Source: Mycobacterium sp. (GTDB lineage: Bacteria; Actinomycetota; Actinomycetes; Mycobacteriales; Mycobacteriaceae). Taken from it: a DNA stretch of 64,000 nt. The DNA lies in the NCBI GenBank assembly GCA_025966225.1, contig JAOPVI010000048.1, positions 12,138-76,137 of the forward strand, given 5' to 3'. Every line of letters starts with the position of its first letter. Positions within the stretch are counted from its first letter, which is position 1. The notes beneath the pieces are model-generated. The model had not been told where the DNA came from. It saw only the letters and a program-made list of their open reading frames with translations, and made no database searches. Shown piece after piece: positions 15,701 through 54,350 of the stretch. The translations under genes were made by a program, and so were the position numbers.

Positions 15701-16060
15701 TTCAAAGTCTTCGACGAAGGCGACGAGGCCAGGATCGCCGGAGTTCGGAATGCTCTGGGTGAGCACGACTTCGACGCTGCATGGGCCGAGGGCGCGGCTT
15801 TGTCGATCGAGGAAGCGACTGCGTTCGCGCTGCGTGGCCGCGGCGGCCGCAAGCGCGCCTCGACCGGTTGGGATTCGCTCACCCCGGCCGAACTCAACGT
15901 CGTCCGACTGGTCTGCGAGGGCTTGGGCAATAAGGACATCGCCGCGCGACTCTTCGTCTCGCACAGAACCGTGCAGGCCCACCTCACGCACGTTTACACC
16001 AAGCTCGGACTGACCTCCCGGGTGCAGCTAGCCCAGGAGGCAACGGCCCGTACTACGTGA
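12752..16060 (+). CDS. class III adenylate/guanylate cyclase - STAND ATPase - TPR - LuxR HTH regulator (Rv0386/Rv1358/Rv2488c-like architecture)
   Basis: ORF of 1102 aa. It has an N-terminal cyclase signature TLLLADVEGSTRLWE, a P-loop LTGAGGAGKTRLA, a helical repeat region and a C-terminal LuxR HTH LTPAELNVVRLVCEGLGNKDIAARLFVSHRTVQAHLTHVYTKLG. Confidence 0.9.
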   Translation: MLASMSETSWSDPDMDADMSELPTGTVTLLLADVEGSTRLWETQPDVMTAAVARLDETLSEAIATHHGVRPVEQGEGDSFVIAFPRAADAVACALELQRSPLAPIKLRVGVHTGDIQLRDEGNYIGPTINRTARLRDLAHGGQTVLSGATEPLVIDQLPPDVSLTDLGSHPLRDLPRPERVVQLCHPDLHNDFPPLRTANAVATKHLPVQLSSFIGRNAEIVGIREALADNRLITLTGAGGAGKTRLAVQVAATIATEFADGVWYVDLASITNPEVVPVTAARALGLPDQPGQQTMDVLLRFIRDRRVLIVLDNCEHLLDSSAELIVGLLAGCPRLTLLTTSREPIGVTGEVSWRVPSLSLADEAIELFSDRARRTKPEFRVTANNAEAVTEICRRLDGLPLAIELAAARVRALSPAEILESLHDQFRLLTGGARTAVRRQQTLRASVDWSHALLSEPEQVLFRRLAVFHGGLDVDAAQAVAGGAEAERYQVLDQLTLLVDKSLLVTDQSKHGTRYRLLETVRQYAQEKLHESREGDDVRIRHRDHYAALAAQFAAAAGDDYERRIDQADSEIDNLRAAFAWSRENSDTELALELASALHPLWLARGRIQEGLNWLSAALADADCDGAAASAQRVRASVGRAVLMAFRGMVAPAELDDPGRILAAARELGDPALVARALTACGCFADADRERGSACFAEAAQIARDIGDSWWLGQTLVLDATFALVFGEPVAAEAAAKEGLAIADGIGDGSVSRQCRYVLAWAQVLRGDLTGALPRLREVGEEYAMAHDAMFAVHVSNMEAITLAYQGHSDEARLAAEVALKRAAEFFDSTTASVYSGFAILHLAAGDASAAWEASEAGRKLTGMYFQTAPLYNWTALAPLACGDLAAARRWADDVVAATTAWSRAAALTSRARVEIALGELDVADRDAYDALDLAARLGGDLLVPFALDCLAVVAAHTGNHVSSARLFGAADAARLHMGMMRFKVFDEGDEARIAGVRNALGEHDFDAAWAEGAALSIEEATAFALRGRGGRKRASTGWDSLTPAELNVVRLVCEGLGNKDIAARLFVSHRTVQAHLTHVYTKLGLTSRVQLAQEATARTT

Positions 16061-20297: not shown

Positions 20298-23200
20298 ATG
20301 GAGTCGGGACGATCGTGTCGGGCCTGCGGTCTGGGCCTGCGGTCCGGTGCCCGGTTCTGCGATGGATGTGGCGCACCGACGGGCACCGACCCCGCTCTGG
20401 CCGAGTACAAGCAGGTCACGATTCTGTTCGCCGATGTCGTCCGGTCCATGGACATCGCCGCTCGCGTCGGCCCGGAGCGACTGCGGGAAATCATGACCGA
20501 GTTGGTCAGCCGCTCGGCTGTTGTAGTCGAGCGCAGTGGCGGAACGCTGAACAGCTACACCGGCGACGGCATCATGGCGCTGTTCGGGGCGCCGGCAGCC
20601 TTGGAGGACCACGCATTTCGTGCGTGCGTGGCCGCGCTCGACCTTCAACACGCTGCGGAACCACTCGCCGGCGACGTGATGCGCCACGACGGCGTGGTGC
20701 TCCAGCTTCGCATCGGCATCAACTCCGGCCAGGTGATAGCGGGCGAGATCAGCCCGACGAGTTACACCGCGATCGGCGATCAGGTCGGCTTTGCGCAGCG
20801 GATGGAATCCGTCGCCCCGCCCGGCGGTGTCATGTTGAGTGAGGCCACCGCACGGTTGGTCGAGGGCGTTGCGGCACTGGGTGATCTCGAGCTGGTGCGT
20901 ATCAAGGGCGCTGACGAGCCGGTGCAGGCCCGCCGCCTCCTCGACATGAAGGAGCGTCGCATCCGCCCCGTGGGCCACGAGGCGCCGGTGATCGGGCGGC
21001 AGCACGAAATCGGCTCACTCACCACGTTCCTGGAACAGGCGATGCGCGGTGACGCATCAGTGGTTCGAGTGACCGGACCGGCGGGCATCGGCAAGAGCAG
21101 GCTGATCGGTGAAGTCACGACGACGGCCGTTGACCGCGGCGCAGAAGTGTTCTCCACCTTCTGCCAGTCCCACACCGGGGACGTTCCGTTCCACGCGATT
21201 TCCGGCCTGCTGCGGGCGGTCTTCGAGGTCGACGAGCTCGACATCGACGCGGCGCGGGAGCGGGTGCGGGTGCGGCTGCCCGATTCCGACAACGAGGACC
21301 TGATTCTGCTCGACGATCTGCTGGGCATTCGTGACACCGCCGGTGGGTTGCCGGCTGTCGATCCAGAGGCGCGACGCCGGCGGCTGGCACGGTTGGTGGA
21401 GACAGCGATCTCGGCGAGTACTCCCGCGGTGTACGTGATCGAGGACGTGCACTGGATCGACGAGGTCAGCGAATCGATGCTCGTCGACTTCGTCGCAACG
21501 GTTTCCGGAACGTCGGCGCTCGTCCTTATCACCCACCGTCCCGAGTATCAGGGCACACTCAGCCACATTGCGGGAGCTGAGGCGATTGAGCTTGCCCCGC
21601 TTGATGGTTCACACGGGTCGGCGTTGACCGCGCTGCTGGTCGGCAGGCGCCCGTCGACCGCCGGACTCGCGACGCAGATTGCCGAACGTGCCGCCGGGAA
21701 CCCGTTCTTCACCGAGGAGATCGTGCGCGACCTCGTCGAACGAAAGATTCTCGAGGGCCACCGCGGCGAGTATGAGTGCCGCCGCGACGCTGCGGAGGTC
21801 AGCGTGCCCGCGACCGTACAGGCCACCATCGCCGCGCGCATCGACCGCCTTGGTGCACGTGCGAAGCGGACACTGAACGCCGCGGCGGTCGTCGGGTCTA
21901 GGTTCAATGCGGATTTGCTCGCCGAAGTGCGCAGTGACTCCATGCTTGGGGAGTTGATGGACGCCGAGCTGATCGATGCGCTCGATTCCCCTGCTGCCGA
22001 GTACGCGTTCAGACACCCGCTGATCCGCACGGTGGCCTACGAATCACAACTGAAATCGGAACGGGCGCAACTGCATCGGCAGCTGGCTGAGGTCATCGAG
22101 CGCCGCCAGCCGACGGCGGCACACGAGAACGCTGCGCTCATCGCGACGCACCTGGAGGCGGCGGGCGACCAACGTGGAGCGTTCGGTTGGCACATGCGCG
22201 CGGCGGGATGGTTGACCGACCGCGACCTCGGCGCGGCCCGAGCGAGTTGGCAGCGGGCTCGAATGGTCGCTGACAGGCTGCCCGGTGACGAGCCCGACCG
22301 GCTAGCGATGCAGATAGCGCCTCGCACCCGGCTCTGCGGCAGCATGTGGATGGCTGGCGGCACGGTCGCCGACACCGGTTTCGACGAACTGCGCGAGCTC
22401 TGCGAGGCGAAGGGCGACAAGGTATCGCTCGCGATTGGCATGTCCGGACTGGTCATGGCGCTGTCAGGGCATCAACGTCTCGTCGAGGCGTCAAGTCTGG
22501 CATCGGAGCTGACTGCGCTGGTCGAGGCGCTTGGAGAGTCCTCACTGACCGTCAATCTGCTCATCGCGGCCGTCTACGCCAAATCCGAGGTCGGTGAGAT
22601 GACCGAAGCTCTTGGCTTGGCCCAACGCGTCATCGACCTGGCCGATGGCGATCTCACGATGGGTGACAAGCTCTTCGGCTCACCGCTGACGCTCGCGACT
22701 CGGATGCGCTGCCTCATTCGACTGTGTCTGGGTATCGACGGCTGGCGATCCGATGCCGACGCGGCTATCGCGATGGCTGCCCCGCTCGCTCCGAAGAATC
22801 TCGTTACCGCGATCTTCTACAAGTACATCGTCGCAATACCCGTCGGCGCCCTGGCCGCCGACGCTGTCGCCTTGCGCGAGACCGCCGATGCCCTGCGTGT
22901 GGCCGAGCAAACCAGCGACGAGTACACCTTGGCAGCGGCCCAGCTCACCCGAGGACTCGTCCTCGTCCGCCAAGACGATCCGCACCGGGAGGAAGGCTTC
23001 ACGCTGCTCACCCAGGCGCGGGACACGGCACTGGCGAAGGGGTTCACGATGAATGCGCTGGCAATTGTCGATCCCGAGATCGCAAGGGAGCGGTCCCGAA
23101 ACGGTGATCTCGACGGTGCAATCGAACTCGCCCGAGCGGCCATTGACGACATGTTCGACAGTGGCGCAATGTACTTGCGCGGGGTGGCCACCACGATTCT

Positions 23201-23441
23201 GGTGGAGTCGCTGCTGGAGCGCGGAGCCGATCGTGACCTGCGGGAGGCACAGGCGGCCATCGACCGGTTGGCAGGAGTGCCCACGGAGCCCGGATTCATA
23301 CTGCACGAACTGCCCTTGCTACGGCTGCGCGCTTTGATGGCGCGGGCGCAGGGCAGCGAGCAGCCCTACCGCGAGCACATGGCGCGGTACCGCGCGAAAG
23401 CGTTGGCGGCCGGATTCGAGCCGCTCGCCACTTCGGGCTGA
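20298..23441 (+). CDS. zinc-ribbon - class III adenylate/guanylate cyclase - AAA/STAND ATPase - TPR-like protein (no LuxR output)
   Basis: ORF of 1047 aa. It has an N-terminal CRACG...FCDGCG zinc ribbon, the cyclase signature VTILFADVVRSMD...YTGDGIMALFGAP, the P-loop VTGPAGIGKSRL and a long helical C-terminal region. Confidence 0.9.
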   Translation: MESGRSCRACGLGLRSGARFCDGCGAPTGTDPALAEYKQVTILFADVVRSMDIAARVGPERLREIMTELVSRSAVVVERSGGTLNSYTGDGIMALFGAPAALEDHAFRACVAALDLQHAAEPLAGDVMRHDGVVLQLRIGINSGQVIAGEISPTSYTAIGDQVGFAQRMESVAPPGGVMLSEATARLVEGVAALGDLELVRIKGADEPVQARRLLDMKERRIRPVGHEAPVIGRQHEIGSLTTFLEQAMRGDASVVRVTGPAGIGKSRLIGEVTTTAVDRGAEVFSTFCQSHTGDVPFHAISGLLRAVFEVDELDIDAARERVRVRLPDSDNEDLILLDDLLGIRDTAGGLPAVDPEARRRRLARLVETAISASTPAVYVIEDVHWIDEVSESMLVDFVATVSGTSALVLITHRPEYQGTLSHIAGAEAIELAPLDGSHGSALTALLVGRRPSTAGLATQIAERAAGNPFFTEEIVRDLVERKILEGHRGEYECRRDAAEVSVPATVQATIAARIDRLGARAKRTLNAAAVVGSRFNADLLAEVRSDSMLGELMDAELIDALDSPAAEYAFRHPLIRTVAYESQLKSERAQLHRQLAEVIERRQPTAAHENAALIATHLEAAGDQRGAFGWHMRAAGWLTDRDLGAARASWQRARMVADRLPGDEPDRLAMQIAPRTRLCGSMWMAGGTVADTGFDELRELCEAKGDKVSLAIGMSGLVMALSGHQRLVEASSLASELTALVEALGESSLTVNLLIAAVYAKSEVGEMTEALGLAQRVIDLADGDLTMGDKLFGSPLTLATRMRCLIRLCLGIDGWRSDADAAIAMAAPLAPKNLVTAIFYKYIVAIPVGALAADAVALRETADALRVAEQTSDEYTLAAAQLTRGLVLVRQDDPHREEGFTLLTQARDTALAKGFTMNALAIVDPEIARERSRNGDLDGAIELARAAIDDMFDSGAMYLRGVATTILVESLLERGADRDLREAQAAIDRLAGVPTEPGFILHELPLLRLRALMARAQGSEQPYREHMARYRAKALAAGFEPLATSG

Positions 23442-24651: not shown

Positions 24652-24912
24652 TCAGGGCCTCGAATTCGGGGTGGATGCTCTGTCGGCGAACTCGCCGGCG
24701 TCGAGAGCGTGGAATTCGCCTGTGCCGCAGGCGATGAAGACTCCGCCCGGGCCTGCGTCGACGCCCTTGGCGACGTGCGCGGCGAGCTTGGTCAGGTCGA
24801 CCTCGCCCGACACGGTGAAGGGTGTGACGGGAAAGAACAGTACGCCTTCGAGCATGTCGTGGAACTGCTCGCTGGATGGGCTGGGTCTGTCAGACTTGGG
24901 TGAGGCGTCCAT
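24652..24912 (-). pseudogene. 5-dehydro-4-deoxyglucarate dehydratase (KdgD/DapA family), N-terminal ~65-85 codons only
   Basis: EQFHDMLEGVLFFPVTPFTVSGEVDLTKLAAHVAKGVDAGPGGVFIACGTGEFHALDAGEFADR aligns with the remembered KdgD N-terminus (LLSFPLTDFD...AAGGTGEFFSL). It then stops at 24652, only 72 nt from the LysR start. Start is ATG at 24912 or 24855. Confidence 0.72.
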
Positions 24913-26488
24913 CGACGCGGCGCCATATCCCGTCGGGATTTCCGTCGGCAATCGCGCTGGGCAGCAGTGCCTTCGGCACGTCCTGATAGGCGACGGGTCG
25001 CAGAAACCGTTCGACCGCGCGTGCTCCGACGGAGGTCGTGCGCGAGTCGGACGTGGCGGGCGACGGGCCGCCGTGCACCATCGCGTAACCAACCTCGACG
25101 CCAGTCGGCCAGCCGCCGAACAGGATTCGCCCGACCTTGGTCTCCAGCGTCGGCAGCAGCTTGCCCGCATCGTCGTAGTCCGACTCGTCGGCGTGAACGG
25201 TCGCAGTCAGCTGGCCTTCCAAACTTGCTGCTATGTCGTTCATCTCATCGACGTCGGTGCATCGCACGACGAGGCTCGACGAGCCGAACACCTCGGCCTG
25301 CAGCACCTCGGACCCCCGGAAGGACGCGGCGTCCGTGCTGAACAGCGCCGCCCGGCAGGTGGTGGGGTTGTCGGCCGCCTCGCCGCGGACGACGAGGTCA
25401 GCGGAGCCGGCCAACGCGGCGACGCCGTCGGCGTAGCTCTTGGCAATTGCGGGCGTCAGCATCGGGGTGGCTGCCGTCTGCACCAGCGCATCGCGGGCCG
25501 CGGAGAGGAACGCGTCGAGCCCAGCCCCGTCGACGGCGATGACCAGCCCAGGGTTGGTGCAGAACTGGCCGGAGCCCATGGTCAGCGAGCCGACGAAGGC
25601 GCGACCCAGGTCGGCACCCCGCGTCGAAAGCGCCCCACCGAGCAGAAACACCGGGTTGATCGAACTCATCTCCGCGTACACCGGGATGGGCTCTGGCCGG
25701 GCCGCGGCGGCTGCGACGAGAGCCGTTCCGCCGGCTCGGGATCCGGTGAAGCCGACGGCCTTGATCCGTGGATCGGTGACGAGTGCGGTACCGAGGCCAG
25801 GACCGGAACCGAACAGAAGCGAGAACGTCCCTGCGGGCAATCCGGAGGACGCGACGGCGCCGGCGATGGCGCGGGCCACCAGTTCGGACGTGCCGGGATG
25901 CGCATCGTGCCCCTTGACGACGACGGGGCAACCGGCCGCGAGTGCCGATGCGGTGTCGCCGCCTGCGACCGAGAACGCCAGCGGGAAGTTGCTGGCCCCG
26001 AACACGGCGACCGGGCCGAGCGGGACGGCCCGCTGGCGAATGTCGGGCCGCGGCAATGGGGTTCGGTCGGGCTGCGCAGGGTCGATGCGTGCCTCAGTCC
26101 AGCTGCCATCGCGCAACACGGCGGCGAAGAGCCGGAGCTGTCCGGTGGTTCGGCCCACCTCGCCTGCGATCCGGCCTTCGGGCAAGCCGGTCTCTGTCAC
26201 CGCCCGGCCGACGAGCGTCGTCGAGCTCGCTTCGAGGTTGTCGGCAATGGCCTCCAGGAAGAGTGCGCGTTGCTCGGAGGTGGTGGCCCGGTAGGTGGGG
26301 AAGGCCTCGGCGGCGGCGGCGCACGCGGTCTCGACGTTGGACACATCGCCGTGGCGGTACGCCGGTTCGACGGCGGTGCCGGCGGCGGGGTCGAAGCCAC
26401 GCACCTCCGGCCCGGTGCCCGTGACGGGAACGCCGGCGATGATCATCTGTCCGGTCAGGTGGCTGGAGTCGTGGATCGTTGCTGTCAC
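24890..26488 (-). CDS. NADP-dependent aldehyde dehydrogenase, alpha-ketoglutaric semialdehyde (2,5-dioxovalerate) dehydrogenase-like
   Basis: ORF of 532 aa with the catalytic Cys region GSGQFCTNPGLV. The length and N-terminus are typical of the KGSADH subgroup. It is adjacent to the kdgD remnant. Confidence 0.85.
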   Translation of the reverse strand: MTATIHDSSHLTGQMIIAGVPVTGTGPEVRGFDPAAGTAVEPAYRHGDVSNVETACAAAAEAFPTYRATTSEQRALFLEAIADNLEASSTTLVGRAVTETGLPEGRIAGEVGRTTGQLRLFAAVLRDGSWTEARIDPAQPDRTPLPRPDIRQRAVPLGPVAVFGASNFPLAFSVAGGDTASALAAGCPVVVKGHDAHPGTSELVARAIAGAVASSGLPAGTFSLLFGSGPGLGTALVTDPRIKAVGFTGSRAGGTALVAAAAARPEPIPVYAEMSSINPVFLLGGALSTRGADLGRAFVGSLTMGSGQFCTNPGLVIAVDGAGLDAFLSAARDALVQTAATPMLTPAIAKSYADGVAALAGSADLVVRGEAADNPTTCRAALFSTDAASFRGSEVLQAEVFGSSSLVVRCTDVDEMNDIAASLEGQLTATVHADESDYDDAGKLLPTLETKVGRILFGGWPTGVEVGYAMVHGGPSPATSDSRTTSVGARAVERFLRPVAYQDVPKALLPSAIADGNPDGIWRRVDGRLTQV

Positions 26489-26598
26489 GAAGCCAACGCT
26501 AGGACTCCAACCGATACATGTCCAAGACCAACGTTGGGACTATTGATAGCAGAACTGCATGAGTGATGGCCGACGTGGACCGAGCGCCGTGGGCCGCG

Positions 26599-27042
26599 CT
26601 ACGCAGACGCGCGACCCCGCAGCGCCAGCCGGTTGAGCACGTCACGGCCTAGGCCGTCGACGTCCGTCCGTGAGCCCTCGGGTATCAAGGTGACGCCGTC
26701 CGCCACAGCCGCCAACTCGATGTCGGCGATGAGCCCGGTCAGCCCGTCGACGGTCCCGGCATACTGCACCGTCGGCGCCTCGCGGGCTGCGAGCCACGCC
26801 CTGGCCGAACGAAAGTCACCCGTCACCGTGACCCGGACGTCGAGGATCACGTCGACGTCAGGCCGGTCCGCGCGGATGCGAGCCCCGTCGCGCTTGGCGA
26901 GTTGGAGGTCGCGTGCCGCGAACCGGACGACCGGAGGACCGCCCGCCGTCAACTCGGTCCAGTCGTCGTCCGCCTCACTGGCGAAGAAAAGCCTCACCTT
27001 CCGCACGGTACGGGTGCGACCCCGCTGCTGCCACCGTTGCAA
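26599..27042 (-). CDS. hypothetical protein; resembles only the C-terminal third of LLM-class flavin/F420 oxidoreductases (possible gene fragment)
   Basis: ORF of 147 aa (TTG start) with a stop codon immediately upstream. The tail YAGTVDGLTGLIADIELAAVADGVTLIP recalls the C-terminal GTP..vA..l..l...G.DG..L motif of LLM enzymes. The assignment is weak. Confidence 0.3.
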   Translation of the reverse strand: MQRWQQRGRTRTVRKVRLFFASEADDDWTELTAGGPPVVRFAARDLQLAKRDGARIRADRPDVDVILDVRVTVTGDFRSARAWLAAREAPTVQYAGTVDGLTGLIADIELAAVADGVTLIPEGSRTDVDGLGRDVLNRLALRGRASA

Positions 27043-27112
27043 TCAGCGAGAATCCATCGGAATGACCGTGCGGCGTCGCGGGGCCGACGCTCAGGCTTAG
27101 TAGTTTGTAGAC

Positions 27113-30100
27113 GTGACAATGGACGTGGGGGGCGGAGCACTGTCAGCCGATGCGCGGCCGGGCATCCCAGCTCAGTACCTGCTATCGGCGCAAGCACCCG
27201 ACCCACGCACGCTGATCGACGTGCTCTACGCCACCGCCGAGCGTCACCCCGACTCCCCCGCCCTCGACGACGGTGACGTTCAACTCACCTACGCCGAACT
27301 CGTCGCCGACATCGAAGAGAGCGTCGAGTGGCTGGCCGCGCGGGGAATCGGCCGCGGCGACCGCATCGGCATCCGGATGCCATCCGGCAGTTACGCGCTC
27401 TACGTCGCGATCCTGTCGGCCTTGGCCGTCGGCGCCGCCTATGTGCCCGTCGACGCAGACGATCCCGACGAACGTGCCGAATTGGTGTTCGGCGAGGCAG
27501 GCGTCGTCGGGGTCATCACCGAGGCCGGCCTGGTACGTGGGGTTGGTTTGTCCCGCGGTTGGCGGGCAGGTGAGCCGTTGGCGCGCGACGACGCCTGGAT
27601 CATCTTCACCTCCGGGTCCACCGGAACGCCCAAGGGCGTCGCGGTGACGCATCGCAACGCCGCGGCCTTCGTCGACGCCGAGGCCCAGATCTTCCTGCAG
27701 GACAATCCACTGGGCCCCGGCGACCGCGTGCTCGCCGGGCTGTCGGTGGCGTTCGACGCGTCGTGCGAGGAGATGTGGCTGGCCTGGCGCCACGGTGCGT
27801 GTCTGGTGCCCGCCCCGCGCTCGTTGGTCCGCAGCGGCATGGACCTGGGCCCGTGGTTGGTGTCCCGGGACATCACGGTCGTCTCGACGGTGCCGACGCT
27901 CGCAGCGCTCTGGCCCGCCGAGGCGCTCGAAGCCGTGCGACTGCTGATCTTCGGCGGGGAAGCCTGCCCTCCGGAGCTCGCCGAGCGACTCGCCGTCGAG
28001 GGCCGCGAAGTGTGGAACACCTACGGGCCCACCGAGGCCACCGTCGTGGCGAGCCTCGCGCGACTCCACGGCAATTCGCCCGTGAGCATCGGGCTGCCGC
28101 TGCCGGGCTGGGATCTGGCGGTCGTCGACAAGGACGGCCAGCCCGTGGCAAAGGGCGAGGTCGGCGAGTTGGTCATCGGCGGCGTCGGCCTGGCGCGCTA
28201 CCTGGATCCGGAGAAGGACGCCGAGAAGTACGCCCCGATGCCCACCCTGGAGTGGGCCCGCGCGTACCGCAGCGGTGACCTGGTCCGCCTCGAAGCCGAC
28301 GGGCTCTACTTCCAGGGCCGCGCCGACGACCAGGTCAAGGTGGGTGGGCGCCGCATCGAACTCGGCGAGGTCGACTCTGCGCTGGTGAACCTGCCAGGCG
28401 TCAGCGGCGGCGCCGCCGCGGTGCGCCGCACCACTAGTGGCACGCCGCTGCTGGTCGGCTACATCGCCAGCGCGGACCCCGAATTCGACCTGGCGGCGGC
28501 GCGGGCCGCGCTGGCCGACTCGCTGCCCGCCGCGCTGGTGCCCCGGCTGGTGCTCGTCGACGAGCTGCCGACGCGGACGTCGGGCAAGGTGGATCGCAAT
28601 GCCCTGCCGTGGCCCATCGAGGGCGACGACGGCTCCGACGGACCGGAGCTTGCAGGAACGATGGGCTGGCTGGCCGGGCTGTGGCGAGACGTATTGGCCG
28701 CGCCGGTCGACGGACCCGAGGCCGACTTCTTCGCGCTCGGCGGCGGTTCACTGTCGGCGGCACAGCTGGTGGCCGCCCTGCGCGCGCGCTACCCGCAGGT
28801 GACCGTCGCCGACCTGTACGACCATCCGCGACTCGGCTCGCTCGCCGGTTACCTCGATGAGCTCGACCCGCCCCCGAAGGTCGAAACCCGTTTGGTGAAG
28901 CCGGTATCCAGGTGGACCGAGTTGGCGCAGGTGGTGGCATCGGTACCGCTGGCCACGCTCGCGGGGATGCAGTGGGTGGTGTGGCTGGCCCTGCTCAACA
29001 ACGTCGCGGCGGCGCTGCACGTGGTGCCGTGGGCACAGCCGGTGAACTGGTGGTGGGTACTCGCAGGCTTCCTGGTGTTCGTAACCCCGTTGGGGCGCAT
29101 GGGCATTGCGATACTCGGCGCCCGCATCCTCGTCGGAGGACTCGAGCCGGGCACCTACCGGCGGGGTGGGAGCGTCCACCTCCGGGTCTGGCTCGCCGAA
29201 CGACTCGCCGACGCCAGCGGCGCGGAGAACCAGGCCGGCGCGCCGTGGTTGGTGTACTACGCACGCGCACTGGGCAACAGGGTCGGCAAGGGTGTCGACC
29301 TGCACTCTGCACCTCCCGTCACCGGGATGCTGACCCTGGGCCACCGGTGCTCGATCGAACCCGAGGTCGACCTCACCGGGCACTGGATCGACGGCGATCT
29401 CTTCCACGTCGGTCCGATCACCGTCGGCAACGACGCTACGATCGGCGCGCGAACAACTCTGCTGCCCAACGCAATCATCGGCAAGAACGCCGACGTCGCA
29501 CCGGGTTCCGGCGTCATCGGCAAGGTCAAGGCCGGCCAGTACTGGAAGGGTTCACCGGCGATGAAGTCGGGCAAGGCCCGGCACCCGTGGCCTGACGAAC
29601 GCCCACGCCGCGCCCCGCTGTGGGTCGCGGTGTACGGTGTGACGTCCGTCCTGCTCGGCGGGGTTCCGCTGGTCGCGCTCGGCGCCGGACTTGCCTTGTT
29701 GGGCTGGGCGATTCGTGACACCCCAACGCTTCGGGCCGCGCTCGTCCCCGTTGCCATCTGGACGCCCGTCGCCACCATCGTCGCCGTGGTGGTCTATGCC
29801 GCGACGACGGTCATCGGGGTGCGGATGCTGGCGCTGGGCCTGCGCGAGGGTTATCACCCGGTGCGCAGTCGAGTCGGTTGGCAGTTGTGGGCCACCGAGC
29901 GGCTGATGGATGCAGCCCGCAACTATCTGTTCCCCATCTACGCTAGCCTGCTCACGCCATGGTGGCTGCGGCTGCTCGGCGCGAAAATCGGTAAGGGCAC
30001 CGAGATCTCGACCGCCCTGCTCACGCCGAAGTTCACGGTGGTCGAGGACGGCGCGTTCCTGGCCGACGACACCATGGTGGCGTCCTACGAGCTGGGTGGC

Positions 30101-31054
30101 GGATGGATCCACGTCTCGACGGCCACCGTCGGCAAGCGGGCCTTCCTCGGCAACTCCGGCATCACCCAGCCGGGCCGGCGGGTGCCCGACGACGGGCTGG
30201 TGGCCGTGCTCAGTGCGACGCCGCACAAGGCCAAGGCGGGTTCGTCGTGGCTGGGCAGCCCACCGATCCGGCTGCGCCGCAAACCGACGGCCGCCGACGC
30301 GCTCCGCACCTTCCATCCCTCGCTGCGGCTGAAGGTCATGCGCGCGACGGTCGAGACGTTCCGGGTGATCCCGTTGATCGTGACGTTCGCCATCGGCGTG
30401 GCGGTGCTTGGCGGATTGCAATTGTTGGCCCGCGAATGCGGCTGGTGGTGGACGGTGGCCGCAGGCGGAGTCGTGCTGCTCGCGGCGGGCGCGCTGGCGG
30501 GGGCCGTCGCGGTCATCGCGAAGTGGTTGGTGGTCGGACGCATCAAGGCCGTCGAACATCCGCTGTGGTCGTCGTTCGTGTGGCGCAACGAGGTCTCCGA
30601 CACCTTCGTCGAGACGGTGGCGGGGCCCTGGTTCGCCAGGGCGGCCAGCGGCACCCCGGTGATGAATCTGTGGCTACGGGCGCTCGGGGCCTCGGTCGGC
30701 CGGGGCGTGTGGTGTGAAACCTACTGGCTGCCAGAGGCCGACCTGGTCACCCTCGGCCGGGGCGCGACGGTCAACCGCGGCTGCGTGGTTCAGACCCACC
30801 TGTTCCACGACCGCATCATGCGCTTGGACACCGTCGTCGTCGAAGCCGGCGCCACCCTGGGCCCCCATTGTGTGGCCCTGCCTGCCGCCAAGATCGGCGC
30901 GGGGGCAACGGTCGGACCGGCCTCCCTGGTCATGCGTGGCGACGAAGTGCCGCCGTCGACGCGATGGCAAGGGAACCCGATCGCCCCGTGGAATGCCTTC
31001 CGCAAGAAGCGCCGCAGCGCGCCCGACAAGACTCCCAAGGAATCCGCCGCGTGA
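27113..31054 (+). CDS. Pls/PosA-type single-module non-ribosomal peptide synthetase: adenylation - thiolation - six TM helices interleaved with three hexapeptide-repeat (acyltransferase-like) domains
   Basis: ORF of 1313 aa. A-domain cores present are IIFTSGSTGTPKGV, FDAS, NTYGPTE, YRSGD, GRADDQVKVGGRRIELGEV and PTRTSGKVDR. The carrier-protein motif is FFALGGGSLSAAQL. There follow three TM pairs, each followed by a left-handed beta-helix-like repeat region (e.g. IGARTTLLPNAIIGKNADVAPGSGVIGKV). No HHxxxDG condensation motif or thioesterase domain was noticed. Confidence 0.88.
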   Translation: MTMDVGGGALSADARPGIPAQYLLSAQAPDPRTLIDVLYATAERHPDSPALDDGDVQLTYAELVADIEESVEWLAARGIGRGDRIGIRMPSGSYALYVAILSALAVGAAYVPVDADDPDERAELVFGEAGVVGVITEAGLVRGVGLSRGWRAGEPLARDDAWIIFTSGSTGTPKGVAVTHRNAAAFVDAEAQIFLQDNPLGPGDRVLAGLSVAFDASCEEMWLAWRHGACLVPAPRSLVRSGMDLGPWLVSRDITVVSTVPTLAALWPAEALEAVRLLIFGGEACPPELAERLAVEGREVWNTYGPTEATVVASLARLHGNSPVSIGLPLPGWDLAVVDKDGQPVAKGEVGELVIGGVGLARYLDPEKDAEKYAPMPTLEWARAYRSGDLVRLEADGLYFQGRADDQVKVGGRRIELGEVDSALVNLPGVSGGAAAVRRTTSGTPLLVGYIASADPEFDLAAARAALADSLPAALVPRLVLVDELPTRTSGKVDRNALPWPIEGDDGSDGPELAGTMGWLAGLWRDVLAAPVDGPEADFFALGGGSLSAAQLVAALRARYPQVTVADLYDHPRLGSLAGYLDELDPPPKVETRLVKPVSRWTELAQVVASVPLATLAGMQWVVWLALLNNVAAALHVVPWAQPVNWWWVLAGFLVFVTPLGRMGIAILGARILVGGLEPGTYRRGGSVHLRVWLAERLADASGAENQAGAPWLVYYARALGNRVGKGVDLHSAPPVTGMLTLGHRCSIEPEVDLTGHWIDGDLFHVGPITVGNDATIGARTTLLPNAIIGKNADVAPGSGVIGKVKAGQYWKGSPAMKSGKARHPWPDERPRRAPLWVAVYGVTSVLLGGVPLVALGAGLALLGWAIRDTPTLRAALVPVAIWTPVATIVAVVVYAATTVIGVRMLALGLREGYHPVRSRVGWQLWATERLMDAARNYLFPIYASLLTPWWLRLLGAKIGKGTEISTALLTPKFTVVEDGAFLADDTMVASYELGGGWIHVSTATVGKRAFLGNSGITQPGRRVPDDGLVAVLSATPHKAKAGSSWLGSPPIRLRRKPTAADALRTFHPSLRLKVMRATVETFRVIPLIVTFAIGVAVLGGLQLLARECGWWWTVAAGGVVLLAAGALAGAVAVIAKWLVVGRIKAVEHPLWSSFVWRNEVSDTFVETVAGPWFARAASGTPVMNLWLRALGASVGRGVWCETYWLPEADLVTLGRGATVNRGCVVQTHLFHDRIMRLDTVVVEAGATLGPHCVALPAAKIGAGATVGPASLVMRGDEVPPSTRWQGNPIAPWNAFRKKRRSAPDKTPKESAA

Positions 31055-32448
31055 CCCGCTCCGCGAAGAAGACCGGCGCTGGGGGTCACCCCGCTTGCGG
31101 GGGAGAGCGCGGCGACCGGGGGAAGAATGGAGCACGCAAGGGCAGCACCCCACCCGTCATCGACCCCTACCTTCCACACAACGGCAACTTCGGGTTCCGG
31201 GTGTCCCGGTACGAATTGGAGCTCGAGTACAAGGTCCAGCTCAACCGGCTGTCGGGCACGGCGACCATCACCGCCGCGACGCTCGCATCGCTGAAGACGT
31301 TCACGCTCGATCTCGCCGACGCCCTGACGGTGTCCAAGGTGTCCGTCAACGGCCATCGGCCCGCTCAGTTCCGTCACGCGAGTGGCAAGCTGCACGTCAC
31401 GTTGTCCTCGACGCTGCCCGCAGGCGCCGCCATGTCGATCAGCGTGCGCTACGCAGGGAACCCGCGACCCATCCAATCCCTATGGGGCGAAGTCGGATTC
31501 GAGGAGCTCTCGGCCGGAGCACTGGTCGCTGGCCAACCGAACGGCGCCGCGACCTGGTTCCCCTGCGACGACCACCCAAGCTCAAAGGCCAGCTACCGCA
31601 TCCAGCTCAGCACCGAGAACCCCTATCGCGCGGTCGTCAACGGCAAGTTGCTGTCCCGCCGCACCCGTGCGGCGATGACCACGTGGACGTACGAGCAGGC
31701 CGAGCCGACGTCGACGTACCTGATGACCCTGCAGATCGGGGTGTACGAGGCGCACCGGCTGGCGAAGGCGCCCGTCGAAATGAATGCCGCGTTGCCGCAA
31801 CGCTTGCGCCGCAACTTCGACCACGACTTCGGCCGCCAGCCCGACATGATGAAGCTCTTCGTCAAACTGTTCGGCCCGTATCCACTCGCCACGGGCCACA
31901 CCGTCGTCGTGACCGACGACGACCTCGAGATTCCGCTTGAGGCGCAGGGCATTTCGATCTTCGGCGCGAACCACTGCGACGGGCATCGCAGCTCGGAGCG
32001 GCTCATCGCACACGAGCTTGCCCACCAGTGGTTCGGCAATTCGGTGACCGCGCGGCGCTGGCGCGACATCTGGCTACACGAAGGATTCGCGTGTTACGCG
32101 GAGTGGTTGTGGTCAGAGGAGTCCGGCGGCCGCAGCGCCGACGAGTGGGCCCGGCACTACCACCAGCGGCTCAAGTCGTCGGCCCAGAATCTGCTGCTGG
32201 CCGACCCCGGCCCTAAGGACATGTTCGACGACCGCGTCTACAAGCGCGGAGCCATCACGCTGCACGTGTTGCGACGCACGATCGGCGACGAGAACTTCTT
32301 CAACCTGCTTCGGGGCTGGACCGCGCGCTACTGGCACACCACCGCGGTCACCGACGACTTCACCGGGCTGGCAGCCAATTACACGGACCAGTCGCTGCGT
32401 CCGCTCTGGCAGGCCTGGCTGTACTCGACGGCTGTCCCCGACCTGTGA
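31051..32448 (+). CDS. M1-family zinc metallopeptidase (aminopeptidase N-like)
   Basis: GTG at 31051 overlaps the NRPS stop (GTGA). The motif HELAHQWFGNSV...WLHEGFA fits HEXXH-X18-E. The N-terminus is basic and no signal peptide is evident. Confidence 0.88.
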   Translation: MTRSAKKTGAGGHPACGGERGDRGKNGARKGSTPPVIDPYLPHNGNFGFRVSRYELELEYKVQLNRLSGTATITAATLASLKTFTLDLADALTVSKVSVNGHRPAQFRHASGKLHVTLSSTLPAGAAMSISVRYAGNPRPIQSLWGEVGFEELSAGALVAGQPNGAATWFPCDDHPSSKASYRIQLSTENPYRAVVNGKLLSRRTRAAMTTWTYEQAEPTSTYLMTLQIGVYEAHRLAKAPVEMNAALPQRLRRNFDHDFGRQPDMMKLFVKLFGPYPLATGHTVVVTDDDLEIPLEAQGISIFGANHCDGHRSSERLIAHELAHQWFGNSVTARRWRDIWLHEGFACYAEWLWSEESGGRSADEWARHYHQRLKSSAQNLLLADPGPKDMFDDRVYKRGAITLHVLRRTIGDENFFNLLRGWTARYWHTTAVTDDFTGLAANYTDQSLRPLWQAWLYSTAVPDL

Positions 32449-33722
32449 CCGACGGCGCGTCGGCAGTACCAGCACCCGGCCCGATCCCTCAGGGACCCGT
32501 GACCAGGGCCAGTGTCGCCCGGGTTGGCATCGCGACCGTCATCAGCGCGCTGTGCGGGTATGCGGTGCTCTACCTCGCCGCCCGCGACCTCGAACCAGCA
32601 GGCTTCTCGGTGTTCGCCGTGTTCTGGGGCGCGTTCGGGTTGCTGGCAGGAGCGGCCAACGGCTTGTTGCAGGAGTCCACCCGCGAGGTGCGCCAGGTCC
32701 AGCAGGGCCCGGAAACGACGGGCCCGCAGCTCCATCCGATCCGGGTGGCCGTCGTGGTCGGCCTGGTCGCCGCAGCTGTCGTCGCGGGCACCGCCCCGCT
32801 GTGGTCGAGTCACGTCTTCGTCGAGTCACGTTGGCTCAGCGTCGGCCTGCTCAGCGTGGGCATCTTTGGGTTCTGCCTGCACGCGACGCTGCTTGGCGTG
32901 CTGGCCGGGGTCAACCGCTGGAGCCAGTACGGGACACTGATCGTCGGCGACGCGACGGGCCGTGTCGTCGTCGCGACCGCCACGTTCCTGGTCGGCTGGG
33001 GTCTGGTCGGCTACCTGTGGGCCACCGTCGCTGGGTCGATCGCCTGGCTGGTGCTGCTGTTGGCGTCACCGGCGACGCGCGCGGCGGCACGCGTGCTAAC
33101 CCCCGGCACCACCATGACGTTCCTTCGCGGCGCCTCTCATTCGATCGCGGCGGCAGGCGCCAGCGCCATCCTGATCATGGGCTTCCCCGTGCTACTGAAG
33201 GCCACGTCGCATGAACTCGGCGCGACCGGCGGCGTGGTGATCCTCGCGGTGACGTTGACGCGCGCCCCGCTGCTTGTTCCGTTGAACGCGATGCAGGGCA
33301 ACCTCATCGCCCACTTCGTCGACGAGCGGTCCGCGCGACTGCGCGCGTTGATCATGCCTGCGTTGGTGGTGTTGGGCCTCGGCGCGCTCGCGGTGCTCGT
33401 CGCCGGGTTGGCCGGGCCGTGGCTGTTGCAGGTGGCGTTCGGACCCGAATACCGGGCGGGCGGCGGCCTGCTGGCCTGGTTCACGGCCGCGGCCATCGCC
33501 ATCGCGCTGCTGACCCTGACCGGGGCCGCGACCGTCGCGGCCGCACTGCATCGGGCGTACGCGGCCGGGTGGGTCGGTGCGACGCTGGCCTCGGCGTTGC
33601 TGTTGCTGCTGCCAACGCCGTTGGAGACGCGAACCGTGGTCGCCCTGCTGTGCGGGCCGCTGGTCGGAATCGTGGTGCATCTGGTCGCGTTGGTAAGGAG
33701 CGAGCCAGGTCCGAACGTGTAG
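32445..33722 (+). CDS. polytopic membrane protein, Rv3630-like (MOP/Wzx flippase-like)
   Basis: ORF of 425 aa that is hydrophobic throughout, with about 12-14 predicted TM helices. GTG at 32445 overlaps the M1 peptidase stop (GTGA). The flippase assignment is an inference from topology and context. Confidence 0.7.
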   Translation: MTDGASAVPAPGPIPQGPVTRASVARVGIATVISALCGYAVLYLAARDLEPAGFSVFAVFWGAFGLLAGAANGLLQESTREVRQVQQGPETTGPQLHPIRVAVVVGLVAAAVVAGTAPLWSSHVFVESRWLSVGLLSVGIFGFCLHATLLGVLAGVNRWSQYGTLIVGDATGRVVVATATFLVGWGLVGYLWATVAGSIAWLVLLLASPATRAAARVLTPGTTMTFLRGASHSIAAAGASAILIMGFPVLLKATSHELGATGGVVILAVTLTRAPLLVPLNAMQGNLIAHFVDERSARLRALIMPALVVLGLGALAVLVAGLAGPWLLQVAFGPEYRAGGGLLAWFTAAAIAIALLTLTGAATVAAALHRAYAAGWVGATLASALLLLLPTPLETRTVVALLCGPLVGIVVHLVALVRSEPGPNV

Positions 33723-33723
33723 T

Positions 33724-34437
33724 TTGTTCGGCATCAGCACCTCAGACACCCGTTACGACGACGTTTGGATCGTCGTCCCAGCCTTCAACGAAGCGAGCGT
33801 GATCGCCGAGGTCATCGCCGACGTTCGCTCCGTCTTCCGTCATGTGGTGTGCGTCGACGACGGCAGCAGCGACGACACCAGCGACCGGGCCTTCTCCGCC
33901 GGCGCTCACGTCGTGCGCCATCCGGTCAATCTCGGGCAGGGTGCGGCCATCCAGACCGGCGTCGAGTACGCCCGGAGCAGGCCGGGCGCCGCGGTGTTCG
34001 CGACGTTCGACGCCGACGGCCAGCACCGCGTCAAGGACGTCGTGGGCATGATCGACCGGCTCACCTCCGAGGACCTCGACATCGTCGTCGGTACCCGGTT
34101 CGGCGACCGCGTCCCCGAGGGCATGCCGAAGCTGAGGCGACTGCTGTTCCCCATCATCGCCAAGGTCAGCCCCGCCAGCCGCAAGCTCGGCCTCACCGAC
34201 GCGCACAACGGGCTGCGGGTGTTCGACAAGACCGTTGCCGATGGCCTCAACCTCACGATGAGCGGCATGAGCCACGCCAGCGAGTTCGTGGCGCTGATCG
34301 TCGAGAACGGTTGGCGGGTGGCCGAGCAACCGGTCGAGATCCTGTACACCGAATACTCGATGTCGAAGGGCCAGCCGCTGGTCAACGGGGTCAACATCAT
34401 CGTCGACGGGTTGCTGCGCGGAAGGATGCGCCGATGA
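33724..34437 (+). CDS. ppgS: GT2 polyprenyl-phosphate glycosyltransferase (Rv3631/PpgS-like)
   Basis: ORF of 237 aa with a TTG start 1 nt after the upstream stop. GT-A motifs VVPAFNE, DDGSSD and DADGQH are present. The symbol comes from synteny with the remembered Rv3631. Confidence 0.82.
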   Translation: MFGISTSDTRYDDVWIVVPAFNEASVIAEVIADVRSVFRHVVCVDDGSSDDTSDRAFSAGAHVVRHPVNLGQGAAIQTGVEYARSRPGAAVFATFDADGQHRVKDVVGMIDRLTSEDLDIVVGTRFGDRVPEGMPKLRRLLFPIIAKVSPASRKLGLTDAHNGLRVFDKTVADGLNLTMSGMSHASEFVALIVENGWRVAEQPVEILYTEYSMSKGQPLVNGVNIIVDGLLRGRMRR

Positions 34438-34775
34438 ACTGGATCCAGGTACTGCTGATCGCTGCGGTCGTCGTGCTTCTGGTGTACCTACTGGCTTCCC
34501 GCCGCAAGGCGCAGTCGAGGGCCTGGGTGAAGGTCGGCTACGTGCTCTTCGTCATCGCGGCGGTGTACGCCATCGTGCGACCCGACGACACCACCGTGGT
34601 GGCCAACTGGCTTGGCATCGGGCGCGGGGCTGACCTGCTCGAGTATGCGTTCATCATCGCGTTCCTGTTCACCACGATCAGCGCATACATGCGCTTCAAG
34701 GACCTCGAATTGCGCTATGCCCGTTTGGCGCGCGCGGTGGCGCTGGAAGGGGCCAGGGCGCCGGAAGATGGTTAG
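34434..34775 (+). CDS. small membrane protein DUF2304 (Rv3632-like)
   Basis: ATG at 34434 overlaps the ppgS stop (ATGA). The 113 aa begin MNWIQVLLIAAVVVLLVYLL and contain about 3 TM helices. Confidence 0.75.
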   Translation: MNWIQVLLIAAVVVLLVYLLASRRKAQSRAWVKVGYVLFVIAAVYAIVRPDDTTVVANWLGIGRGADLLEYAFIIAFLFTTISAYMRFKDLELRYARLARAVALEGARAPEDG

Positions 34776-34909: not shown

Positions 34910-37701
<2,792 letters not shown>

Positions 37702-37762
37702 CTGGACACAGGCGATAATCAGAAGTTGACGGTGACTGGTTCGGTATCCGAGGGGTGCACGG

Positions 37763-38161
37763 GTGGGCGTTCTTGACGGCTTCTTGTCGACGTGGTCGAA
37801 CGCTAAGGCGACCTTCGGTGAGGGCGCCCCACGGGGTGGCGCACAGTTCGACGCCAGCGGACCCCTCAACCAGCTGAAATCCGATCTCGACTCGGCGGCG
37901 CCCGGCTCAAGGTGGACTGGTTCGGCCGCAACCGCATACGGAGCGGCCAACAGCGAGCACCAGCGTGTCATCGGCGAATTGGGCGGGTTGGACAAGCGCC
38001 TCGCCGCCCACGTCGACGAGTCAGCCCGCATCGTCACCGCGGGACGCAACGAGCTCGATGCAGTGCGCAAGTGGGTCGTCGACGCGGCGGGAAACATGCC
38101 CAACAATGCCGAAGGCCAGCGGATGCTGGTGCGACTCATGGCAATTGATGAGCAACGATGA
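37763..38161 (+). CDS. EspA/EspE-like (WXG-type helical) protein, probably truncated
   Basis: The 132 aa contain GSRWTGSAATAYGAANSEHQRVIGELGGLDKRLAAHVDESARIVTAGRNEL. This parallels the remembered EspA segment GDGWLGSAADKYAGKNRNHVNFFQELADLDRQLISLIHDQANAVQTTRDIL. Downstream, plausible coding segments switch frames. Confidence 0.5.
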   Translation: MGVLDGFLSTWSNAKATFGEGAPRGGAQFDASGPLNQLKSDLDSAAPGSRWTGSAATAYGAANSEHQRVIGELGGLDKRLAAHVDESARIVTAGRNELDAVRKWVVDAAGNMPNNAEGQRMLVRLMAIDEQR

Positions 38162-38602
38162 CGTCCCCGGGGATTGAGGCAAGTTCGCCGACCAGCAGAA
38201 GGGCGGCTTCGACCGCCTGCCGGACTCCGTCCAGAAGATTCTGGAAGAAGCGAACCCCAAGGCGTCGACGCCCTGCGGATAACGCTGTCCGCTCCGGGAG
38301 AACCCTCTCCGTTGCAACCACAGGTCGGCCCGTCCCCCGCACCGAGCGCCGATGTGTTCGGCGATTGGCGAATCCCCAATGTCGAGTTCCCGACCAAACC
38401 TTACTTCGCTCTCAATGGCCCACGTACGAAGCAGATGTAGCGAAATGCGTTGAGAAGGCGCCGGATTCGCTAGAACGGCGTGCCTTCCTCCTTAATGGTG
38501 AGCATCCGCGCAGCGACTTTCCCACGTCACCGTCAAATCCAGGGTGGCCGGAGAAGAAGGACTGAGCGGAAGCCGTCAGCCGCTCGTGCCAAGCTAGTAA
38601 GC

Positions 38603-38997: not shown

Positions 38998-39070
38998 AGC
39001 CGCCTCCGGGAATCGAACCCGGGACCTTCTCATTACGAGTGAGACGCTCTACCGACTGAGCTAAGGCGGC
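38998..39070 (-). tRNA. tRNA-Thr (anticodon CGT)
   Basis: The reverse complement is GCCGCCTTAGCTCAGTCGGTAGAGCGTCTCACTCGTAATGAGAAGGTCCCGGGTTCGATTCCCGGAGGCGGCT. It shows a cloverleaf with a 7-bp acceptor stem, a T-arm GGTTCGATTCC and the anticodon loop CT-CGT-AA. No CCA is encoded. Confidence 0.92.
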
Positions 39071-54251: not shown

Positions 54252-54350
54252 GGAAAAAGGGACGACCCCCGCCAGGGGGGGAGGAGGCGGAGGTCGTCGT
54301 GTATCAGCCCCGGGGGGTCGGGCTGATCCACACCCGGCATAAGCCGAGTG
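54252..54350 (-). ncRNA. 6C-family sRNA (M. tuberculosis B11 / ncRv13660c equivalent)
   Basis: The minus-strand RNA folds into hairpin AUCAGCCC-GACCCCCCG-GGGCUGAU (54304-54326). A 13-bp terminator stem GACGACCUCCGCC/GGCGGGGGUCGUC with loop UCCUCCCCCCU (54261-54298) follows, then CCUUUUUCC. Two loops each with six consecutive C is the 6C hallmark. The location in the ssd/HAD IGR matches the remembered position of B11. The 5' end is estimated. Confidence 0.75.

Follow-up and report, generated by a model that had tools for sequence, protein, structure and literature searches.

The window analysed here is the whole 64,000-nucleotide stretch of contig JAOPVI010000048.1 from a soil-type Mycobacterium sp., and its positions 27113-34775 hold five open reading frames (ORFs), all on the + strand. 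In order, they encode a non-ribosomal peptide synthetase (NRPS) of the Pls type, an M1 peptidase, an Rv3630-like protein of MOP-like appearance, the sugar transferase PpgS and its DUF2304 (Rv3632-like) partner. These identities had been proposed in an earlier note on this DNA and held in domain, profile and structure searches; the galE1 gene and the GT-C-type Rv3635-like protein that it placed next door are indeed there (Table 1). The G+C content of the window is about 0.64-0.71, measured in 2-kb windows.

Table 1 Features of the five-gene chain and its immediate flanks
Feature	Position	Strand	Basis
P1, promoter-like element TTAGTAGTTTGTAGAC	27098..27112	+	Conserved in relatives
Pls-type single-module NRPS, 1313 aa, predicted epsilon-poly-L-lysine synthetase	27113..31054	+	Pfam, NCBIfam, 7WEW match
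PldII-like short M1 zinc metallopeptidase, 465 aa	31051..32448	+	Pfam Peptidase_M1_N, Peptidase_M1
Rv3630-like polytopic membrane protein, 425 aa, 12 predicted transmembrane helices, MOP/Wzx-like	32445..33722	+	Hydropathy, Foldseek
P2, promoter-like element GTGTAGTTTGttcggCATC, spans Rv3630-like stop and ppgS TTG start	33717..33740	+	Conserved motif
ppgS, polyprenyl-phospho-N-acetylgalactosaminyl synthase by family match, GT2, 237 aa	33724..34437	+	NF058614, Glycos_transf_2
Rv3632-like small membrane partner of PpgS, DUF2304, 113 aa, 3 hydrophobic segments	34434..34775	+	Pfam DUF2304, 100.7 bits
galE1-like UDP-hexose/UDP-HexNAc 4-epimerase, convergent with the five-gene chain	34910..35851	-	Pfam Epimerase, TIGR01179 GalE
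Rv3635-like GT-C-fold membrane protein, 600 aa, C-terminal beta-sandwich domain	35899..37701	+	Homologues, Foldseek
147-aa gene, left boundary of the unit, divergent	26599..27042	-	ORF; no Pfam family above threshold

The synthetase matched the NCBIfam Pls/PosA model TIGR02353 over residues 605-1290 with 757.4 bits (cut-off 423.1), and Pfam found only AMP-binding, PP-binding and Hexapep domains in it, with no classical condensation (C) or thioesterase (TE) domain. Its adenylation (A) domain matched that of Streptomyces albulus Pls (7WEW) with E=1e-188 and about two-thirds identity in the printed alignment. Six transmembrane (TM) helices (607-625, 649-667, 838-856, 876-894, 1088-1106 and 1117-1135) form three pairs (607-667, 838-894, 1088-1135) interleaved with three tandem hexapeptide-repeat domains; here and throughout, TM segments come from a simple Kyte-Doolittle hydropathy scan, not a dedicated topology tool. 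The A-domain specificity residues, anchored by motifs and the 7WEW alignment (positions 215, 216, 219, 258, 279, 281, 303, 311, 312 and 492), read DAESIGTVVK, which is common to all 79 full-length relatives and is the lysine code of the experimentally characterised S. albulus Pls (PMC10522769, supplementary table 2). PosA, the delta-poly-L-ornithine synthetase of Acinetobacter baumannii, has the ornithine code DMEHNGTVSK, and position 2 is F in the DAP/DAB enzymes (PMC10522769). The NRPS is predicted from these features to synthesise epsilon-poly-L-lysine; it has the TIGR02353 family and domain plan in common with PosA and the other cationic homo-poly-amino-acid synthetases (PMC10522769), and differs from PosA in its lysine code and its Pls-type peptidase gene context. 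An exact-sequence look-up returned no recorded match for the NRPS, nor for one Rv3635 homologue.

The M1 gene has AAGGAA 6-11 nt 5' of its start and adjoins the NRPS gene in 77 of the 80 loci recovered by a scan from the NRPS side, which covered Mycolicibacterium, Mycobacterium, Mycolicibacter, Rhodococcus, Nocardia, Tsukamurella, Williamsia, Gordonia, Speluncibacter and Kribbella. Its product has the active-site motif HELAH at residue 321 together with E344 (HEXXH-X18-E); the GXMEN motif is absent, and the closest solved structure is 6A8Z, a 474-aa 'zinc metalloprotease' (E=4e-43). The N terminus is basic and of low complexity, and the hydropathy scan, which is not a dedicated signal-peptide tool, found no hydrophobic signal or TM segment. 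The C terminus of the NRPS (30990-31050) and the first ~33 M1 residues (31051-31150) are Lys/Arg-rich, of low complexity and variable in length between species.

The NRPS-M1 pair is a known pls-pldII-type unit. In S. albulus, pls and pldII overlap by 4 bp in a single operon (PMC4361855) and are translationally coupled, PldII being an endo-type self-protection enzyme (PMC9223678); a Pls-peptidase operon is also found in Corynebacterium (PMC8117764). The pair in the window resembles that of S. albulus in its A and carrier (PCP) module, six TM helices, three hexapeptide-type domains, absence of classical C and TE domains and DAESIGTVVK code, as well as in the zinc peptidase gene directly downstream with a 4-bp stop/start overlap. 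Unlike the S. albulus pair, it runs unbroken into the Rv3630-like, ppgS and DUF2304 genes, it is headed by a putative leaderless-type promoter that relatives appear to use for the sugar operon alone, and no signal or TM segment is predicted in its peptidase. The polymer product is here predicted from the genes, and the likeness to PldII is by description; in Corynebacterium variabile, which has a functional Pls homologue, no polymer was found in culture (PMC8117764). Pls-type genes are widespread in mycobacteria and relatives, with at least about 600 matching stretches in a genome scan.

The remaining three genes of the chain belong with galE1 and the Rv3635-like gene. PpgS matched the NCBIfam equivalog NF058614 with 409.5 bits (cut-off 370) as well as Pfam Glycos_transf_2, and GGAAGGA precedes the start of the DUF2304 gene; the role of Rv3632 as PpgS partner (PMC9671496, PMC3485146) and the epimerase activity of Rv3634c (PMC5389812) have been described. 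The Rv3630-like protein had no match in Pfam (even at E=10), NCBIfam or a PDB profile search, and its homologues carry the JGI label 'O-antigen/teichoic acid export membrane protein'. Foldseek ranks 1-27 for its AlphaFold model (pLDDT 57) were all MOP proteins (MATE, WzxE), with MurJ lower (E ~1e-4, TM score ~0.5). No Shine-Dalgarno sequence is visible 5' of its start. An alternative in-frame GTG at 32499 is used by one database entry (407 aa); the start at 32445 is favoured because the -4 start is conserved and because G17 and P18, upstream of the alternative, are invariant. Homologues of the Rv3635-like protein (573-616 aa) are annotated 'hypothetical' or 'transmembrane', and residues Y41 W42 D43 D44 are invariant, giving a WDD motif near the N terminus. 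The top Foldseek matches for its model (pLDDT 71.5) were EmbB, STT3/OST, AglB, AftD and Pmt4 (E 5e-4 to 4e-2, TM score 0.3-0.4). An 865-aa minus-strand ORF at 35800-38397, considered as the Rv3635-like gene, proved to be a shadow ORF of the real gene on the + strand.

The four junctions of the chain lie exactly where the earlier note had placed them, and they are kept in relatives. The NRPS stop and M1 start share GTGA (31051-31054), the M1 stop and Rv3630-like start share a second GTGA (32445-32448), the Rv3630-like stop TAG (33720-33722) is followed by a single T and then the ppgS TTG at 33724, and the ppgS stop and DUF2304 start share ATGA (34434-34437). Among the 77 adjacent NRPS-M1 pairs, an overlapping M1 start is available in 63, at -4 in 34, at -1 in 15 and at another overlap in 14. 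The -4 overlap recurs in 23/24 loci at the M1/Rv3630-like junction and in 13/16 relatives at the PpgS/DUF2304 junction. The Rv3630-like/PpgS junction overlaps in none of 16 loci, the gap being at most 30 nt in 13 and larger in 2, and the remaining 1 lacking a start codon in range; the gene calls of M. madagascariense give a 4-nt overlap at all four junctions, this one included. The overlaps are conserved and hence no accident of ORF calling. A caveat is that 4-base overlaps are ordinary in high-GC actinobacterial operons.

A sigma-70 promoter scan returned no promoters, and because its consensus fits mycobacteria poorly, relatives were compared instead. Directly 5' of the NRPS start, the short P1 element, GCTTAGTAGTTTGTAnnCGTGAC, is kept in 16/16 relatives examined, and the surrounding upstream sequence is not. 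P1 contains a TANNNT hexamer, TAGTTT (27101-27106), that stops 7 nt 5' of the initial G of the GTG codon at which the NRPS starts; in mycobacterial promoters this spacing is the geometry of a leaderless mRNA. P1 is thus a putative promoter that predicts a leaderless transcript. The 9-mer GTAGTTTGT has exactly two copies in the window, one in P1 (27100-27108) and one in P2 (33719-33727), against 0.05 expected; the copies could mark a pair of like promoters or the places where one shared regulator binds.

A P1-type element, CTTAsTATTTTCAAAyTGTG, also lies 5' of the Rv3630-like gene in 5/6 NRPS-less loci examined. In five metagenome loci (L142, L148, L150, L154 and L159) a mini-ORF of 12-14 codons comes next, for example VATNHVGRRKALPR, and its stop shares a GTGA with the Rv3630-like start, at the site equivalent to window positions 27098-32448. 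The mini-ORF opens with GTG GCG AYR, as the NRPS gene does in some genomes that have the cassette, and closes with bases similar to those at the 3' end of the M1 gene; the left-flank genes are the same whether or not a locus has the cassette. On this comparison of sequences, pls-pldII is a 5.3-kb cassette, present or absent at a single fixed site, with the putative promoter on one side and the Rv3630-like gene on the other. The mini-ORF could be what a deletion left behind, or it could encode a leader peptide on which translational coupling depends; for the history of the cassette, an in-frame deletion remnant seems likelier than insertion. The Rv3630-like gene, having no Shine-Dalgarno sequence, appears to rely on stop/start coupling, and for this reason the swap between cassette and mini-ORF is the best available support for the proposal, made in the earlier note, that the five genes form one expression unit. 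It would also provide a natural example of a leaderless, coupling-dependent operon that tolerates 5.3 kb of coding sequence being gained or lost.

We favour, with a probability of roughly 60%, the interpretation that the five genes make up a composite operon in which two known modules, independent in their biochemistry, are co-expressed from P1. In the first module, the membrane-embedded Pls would adenylate L-lysine and load it onto the carrier domain, and its three tandem C-terminal domains would polymerise lysine iteratively into epsilon-poly-L-lysine, while the M1 zinc endopeptidase, coupled through the 4-bp overlap, would trim or degrade the polymer for self-protection. In the second, which would serve arabinogalactan decoration, GalE1 would supply UDP-N-acetylgalactosamine (UDP-GalNAc), PpgS and its DUF2304 partner would make polyprenyl-P-GalNAc, and the Rv3630 MOP/Wzx-like and Rv3635 GT-C homologues would probably flip and transfer the lipid-linked sugar. 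Transcription from P1 probably runs through all five genes, with translation handed on by stop/start coupling. With the cassette placed in the sugar operon's leader, co-expression of the five genes is likely in this lineage. We assign the Rv3630-like protein to the glycan side because its gene remains beside the sugar genes in loci that lack the cassette and because it co-occurs with the GT-C Rv3635 homologue wherever this is assessable within Mycobacteriaceae. Promoter activity, co-transcription, the polymer product and the flippase and transferase roles are what we infer within this scheme.

The idea of a single expression unit is made plausible by the conserved P1 at the NRPS start and by three of the four junctions, which leave no regulatory room. 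An intrinsic-terminator scan returned 3 terminator-like sites, no more than in shuffled sequence, with none above chance inside the chain, and an Rfam scan of the operon was negative for riboswitches, including a lysine riboswitch 5' of the NRPS, and for all other RNA families. Folding of the DUF2304-galE1 intergenic region gave z = -1.2 and no convincing terminator. The part that does not hold so readily concerns the Rv3630-like/ppgS junction, where P2 lies. Its motif, GTGTAnnTTG...CATCGACA, can be recognised in nearly all loci that have this junction, whether the NRPS is there or not. Relatives have an ATG, not preceded by a Shine-Dalgarno sequence, 10-13 nt 3' of the P2 hexamer, an arrangement that suggests a near-leaderless ppgS transcript, and P2 would there add independent ppgS expression. 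In the window, the codon at the position of that ATG is ACC, and the TTG at 33724 is the sole canonical ppgS start; because this start lies inside P2, the element could not yield a canonical PpgS start here, and PpgS seems dependent on upstream read-through and coupling.

The P2-like element also bears on a different interpretation, that the adjacency is an inherited neighbourhood in which separate transcripts start at promoters internal to coding sequence and the overlaps play no part in regulation. Frequent 4-base overlaps in high-GC genomes fit this interpretation, as does the position of pls-pldII near holB and topA in both Nocardia and Mycobacteriaceae, which points to an ancestrally shared region. 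So does the arrangement in Mycolicibacter engbaekii and Mycobacterium sp. UM_WGJ, where pls-pldII is found on the opposite side of the sugar block, after the Rv3635-like gene. We nevertheless consider it unlikely: the Rv3630-like gene, lacking a Shine-Dalgarno sequence, keeps its GTGA with whichever ORF precedes it, M1 or mini-ORF, which argues for dependence on translation from P1, the start positions at the junctions are conserved, and no canonical PpgS start lies 3' of P2 in the window.

Several points weigh against the composite operon. The promoter activity of P1 and P2 is deduced from conservation and geometry, and if P2 is active, ppgS-DUF2304 may be a largely independent transcription unit in relatives. 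The chain of NRPS, M1 and membrane protein recurs in three families, represented by Mycolicibacterium, Williamsia (L043) and Speluncibacter (L053), and outlives the loss of ppgS in 8 genomes; this persistence of the trio could mean that the Rv3630-like protein serves the polymer, not the sugar pathway. Its MOP assignment is weak, coming from a low-confidence model (pLDDT 57). The orthology of the M1 protein to S. albulus PldII is read from synteny, out to Kribbella, and from the literature description, not from direct alignment. For S. albulus PldII, the reported site of action is outside the membrane (PMC9223678), whereas the M1 protein here has no predicted signal or TM segment.

If the Rv3630-like protein did serve the polymer, it could be a MATE-like exporter or immunity pump for polylysine, the unit would be pls-pldII-exporter, and ppgS-DUF2304 would be a separate operon behind it. 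The -4 overlap with the peptidase gene in 23/24 loci, the retention of the trio when ppgS is lost, the MATE cation exporters among the best structural matches and the division of ppgS from the trio by P2 all agree with such a function. It appears rather improbable all the same, as the Rv3630-like gene stays, coupled to the mini-ORF, in 5/6 examined loci without pls-pldII, and stays in Mycolicibacter with pls 8 kb off on the other side, while in other genera it is missing from the surroundings of more than 45 pls-pldII loci. Pls is, moreover, thought to extrude its own product, and the co-occurrence with the GT-C Rv3635 homologue speaks for the glycan side.

The distribution of the two modules was examined from both ends. 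Neighbour genes were called with a codon-position GC filter; an all-vs-all six-frame clustering of the 80 NRPS-side loci was swamped by high-GC shadow ORFs. On the NRPS side, the Rv3630-like gene, ppgS and DUF2304 were all present in 16 loci, the Rv3630-like gene without ppgS/DUF2304 in 9 (8 of them assessable), and M1 only in 53, about 45 of which had at least 5 kb of downstream sequence. About 45 assessable genomes, from Nocardia, Rhodococcus, Tsukamurella, Kribbella and slow-growing Mycobacterium, thus have the pair and no ppgS closer to it than 10 kb. Its neighbours can be unrelated to the present locus, as in Rhodococcus (MFS transporter, GntR regulator, gamma-glutamyltranspeptidase) and Mycolicibacter (encapsulin system). 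A metagenome scan from the ppgS side gave 25 loci with enough upstream sequence: NRPS-M1-Rv3630-like lay upstream in 17, and 8 had the full block (Rv3630-like, ppgS, DUF2304, galE1, Rv3635-like, holB, cyclase, topA) with no NRPS within ~8 kb.

In eight loci (L009, L011, L013, L034, L035, L040, L074 and L075), NRPS-M1-Rv3630-like is followed by the Rv3635-like gene without ppgS/DUF2304. The gap holds, in L009, L011, L013, L034, L035 and L075, another + strand NAD-dependent epimerase, ~30% identical to GalE1; the replaced epimerase suggests a swapped sugar specificity.

The literature describes similar separations. M. smegmatis has no ppgS (PMC3485146), the ppgS locus of C. glutamicum is described without a synthetase (PMC9671496), and the neighbours of Rv3632 in M. 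tuberculosis are Rv3629c-Rv3633 (PMC6487176), a neighbourhood described in these sources with no synthetase in it. A lysine-code Pls-type protein filed under Mycobacterium tuberculosis (PLV54557.1; PMC10522769, table 2 of the supplement) may, given that neighbourhood, come from a mislabelled or contaminated assembly. Each module stands without the other, and we read them as two independent modules.

This result bears on the further proposal that the polymer is made, exported or attached together with a lipid-linked sugar. The linkage of NRPS/M1 to ppgS, for which phylogenetic profiling had been suggested, turned out to be lineage-specific, with the two unlinked both ways: the pair occurs without ppgS in the ~45 genomes, and the sugar block without NRPS/M1 in 8/25 loci. 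Eight genomes keep NRPS-M1-Rv3630-like and have lost ppgS/DUF2304, and P2 splits ppgS from the upstream genes. The earlier note had itself named unlinked NRPS/M1 pairs and internal promoters as grounds for rejecting the coupling, and a shared chemical pathway for polymer and sugar is unsupported. In its full form, such an integrated envelope charge-modification pathway would have polylysine built on, attached to or exported with the lipid-linked amino sugar made by PpgS; for example, deacetylated polyprenyl-P-galactosamine (polyprenyl-P-GalN) or arabinogalactan-GalN could be the amine acceptor that primes Pls, with the MOP protein flipping the conjugate. Pls extends a free acceptor nucleophile, which makes a foreign amine primer chemically conceivable, and both products carry free amines. 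The gene chain is tight and kept in many Mycolicibacterium-type genomes, with similar neighbourhoods in Williamsia and Speluncibacter, and no flippase or deacetylase has yet been assigned to the GalN pathway (PMC9671496). We regard this pathway as very improbable, because each module is intact without the other in many relatives, the eight genomes retain pls-pldII and the membrane protein after losing ppgS/DUF2304, Streptomyces Pls releases free polymer without such partners according to the literature, the locus offers no ligase, transpeptidase or deacetylase candidate, and the promoter-like P2 intervenes. The specific version in which Pls extends an amino-sugar acceptor, polyprenyl-P-GalN or arabinogalactan GalN, to give an anchored polycationic coat flipped or exported by the MOP-like protein is, if anything, more improbable still; were it true, it would be a new kind of cell-envelope charge modification. 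Likeness to Dlt D-alanylation and to MprF/LysX lysyl-lipid synthesis is by analogy only, in that amine-bearing groups are placed on the envelope, as GalN or retained polylysine would be; beyond a generic adenylation domain their components have no homologues here, DltA matches fell far below cut-offs, and the locus gives no sign that the polymer is fixed to the envelope.

In the composite operon, both modules and the pls/pldII overlap are already known. We found no description, in the literature searched, of the fusion of the modules under one putative leaderless-type promoter, of the mini-ORF stand-in, or of the wide occurrence of Pls in Mycobacteriales, and no paper there links Pls to the mycobacterial envelope. 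Work on Pls-type synthetases has concerned the secreted food preservative that they make in Streptomyces, and their mycobacterial role is unstudied in that literature. The arrangement leads to the hypothesis that environmental mycobacteria turn on a polycation and a cationic GalN wall decoration together, and the Rv3630-like MOP and Rv3635-like GT-C proteins become candidates for unassigned steps of the GalN pathway.

The locus can be compared with the Rv3630-Rv3635 region of M. tuberculosis, whose arrangement was taken from the literature and from the NRPS-less metagenomic loci, not from the H37Rv sequence. PpgS, the DUF2304 gene overlapping the ppgS stop, the Rv3630-like gene upstream and the adjoining galE1 and Rv3635-like genes are alike, as is the downstream order of holB, HAMP cyclase, topA and helicase genes; this synteny, with Rv3644c-Rv3649, counts in favour of the composite operon. 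Unlike in M. tuberculosis, pls-pldII lies here between the putative promoter and the Rv3630-like gene, and no Rv3633-like gene lies between DUF2304 and galE1. The arabinogalactan-modification locus of C. glutamicum (cgp_0391, cgp_0393, ppgS cgp_0394, cgp_0396) likewise has galE1, a DUF2304-type partner and ppgS, which cell-wall decoration requires (PMC9671496); no Pls-type synthetase is described in it, and its extra GT2, cgp_0396, is absent from the window. An extra GT2 between the Rv3630-like gene and ppgS in Williamsia (L043, 16998-18176, -) and Speluncibacter (L053, 16549-17439, -) recalls cgp_0396.

On the left, homologues of the divergent 147-aa gene lie directly 5' of the NRPS in several Mycolicibacterium-type loci (e.g. 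L001, L002, L005, L017 and L040). A 631-aa ORF at 24671-26566 (+) was rejected as a shadow of the aldehyde dehydrogenase gene at 24890-26488 (-). Further 5' of the locus lie genes for a 1102-aa cyclase/NB-ARC/LuxR-type signalling protein (12752-16060, +) and for a 1047-aa signalling protein that matched the TOMM kinase/cyclase fusion family below threshold (20298-23441, +). On the right, a small EspA/EspE-family protein (37763-38161, +; PF18879, 82 bits) is encoded directly 3' of the Rv3635-like gene. Rfam placed a tRNA at 38998-39070 (-), 6C RNA at 54257-54332 (-; 88 bits) and the Ms1 small RNA at 55469-55771 (+; 280 bits). The downstream gene order is presumably that of the M. tuberculosis Rv3644c-Rv3662 region, and the Ms1 and 6C RNAs fit that synteny.

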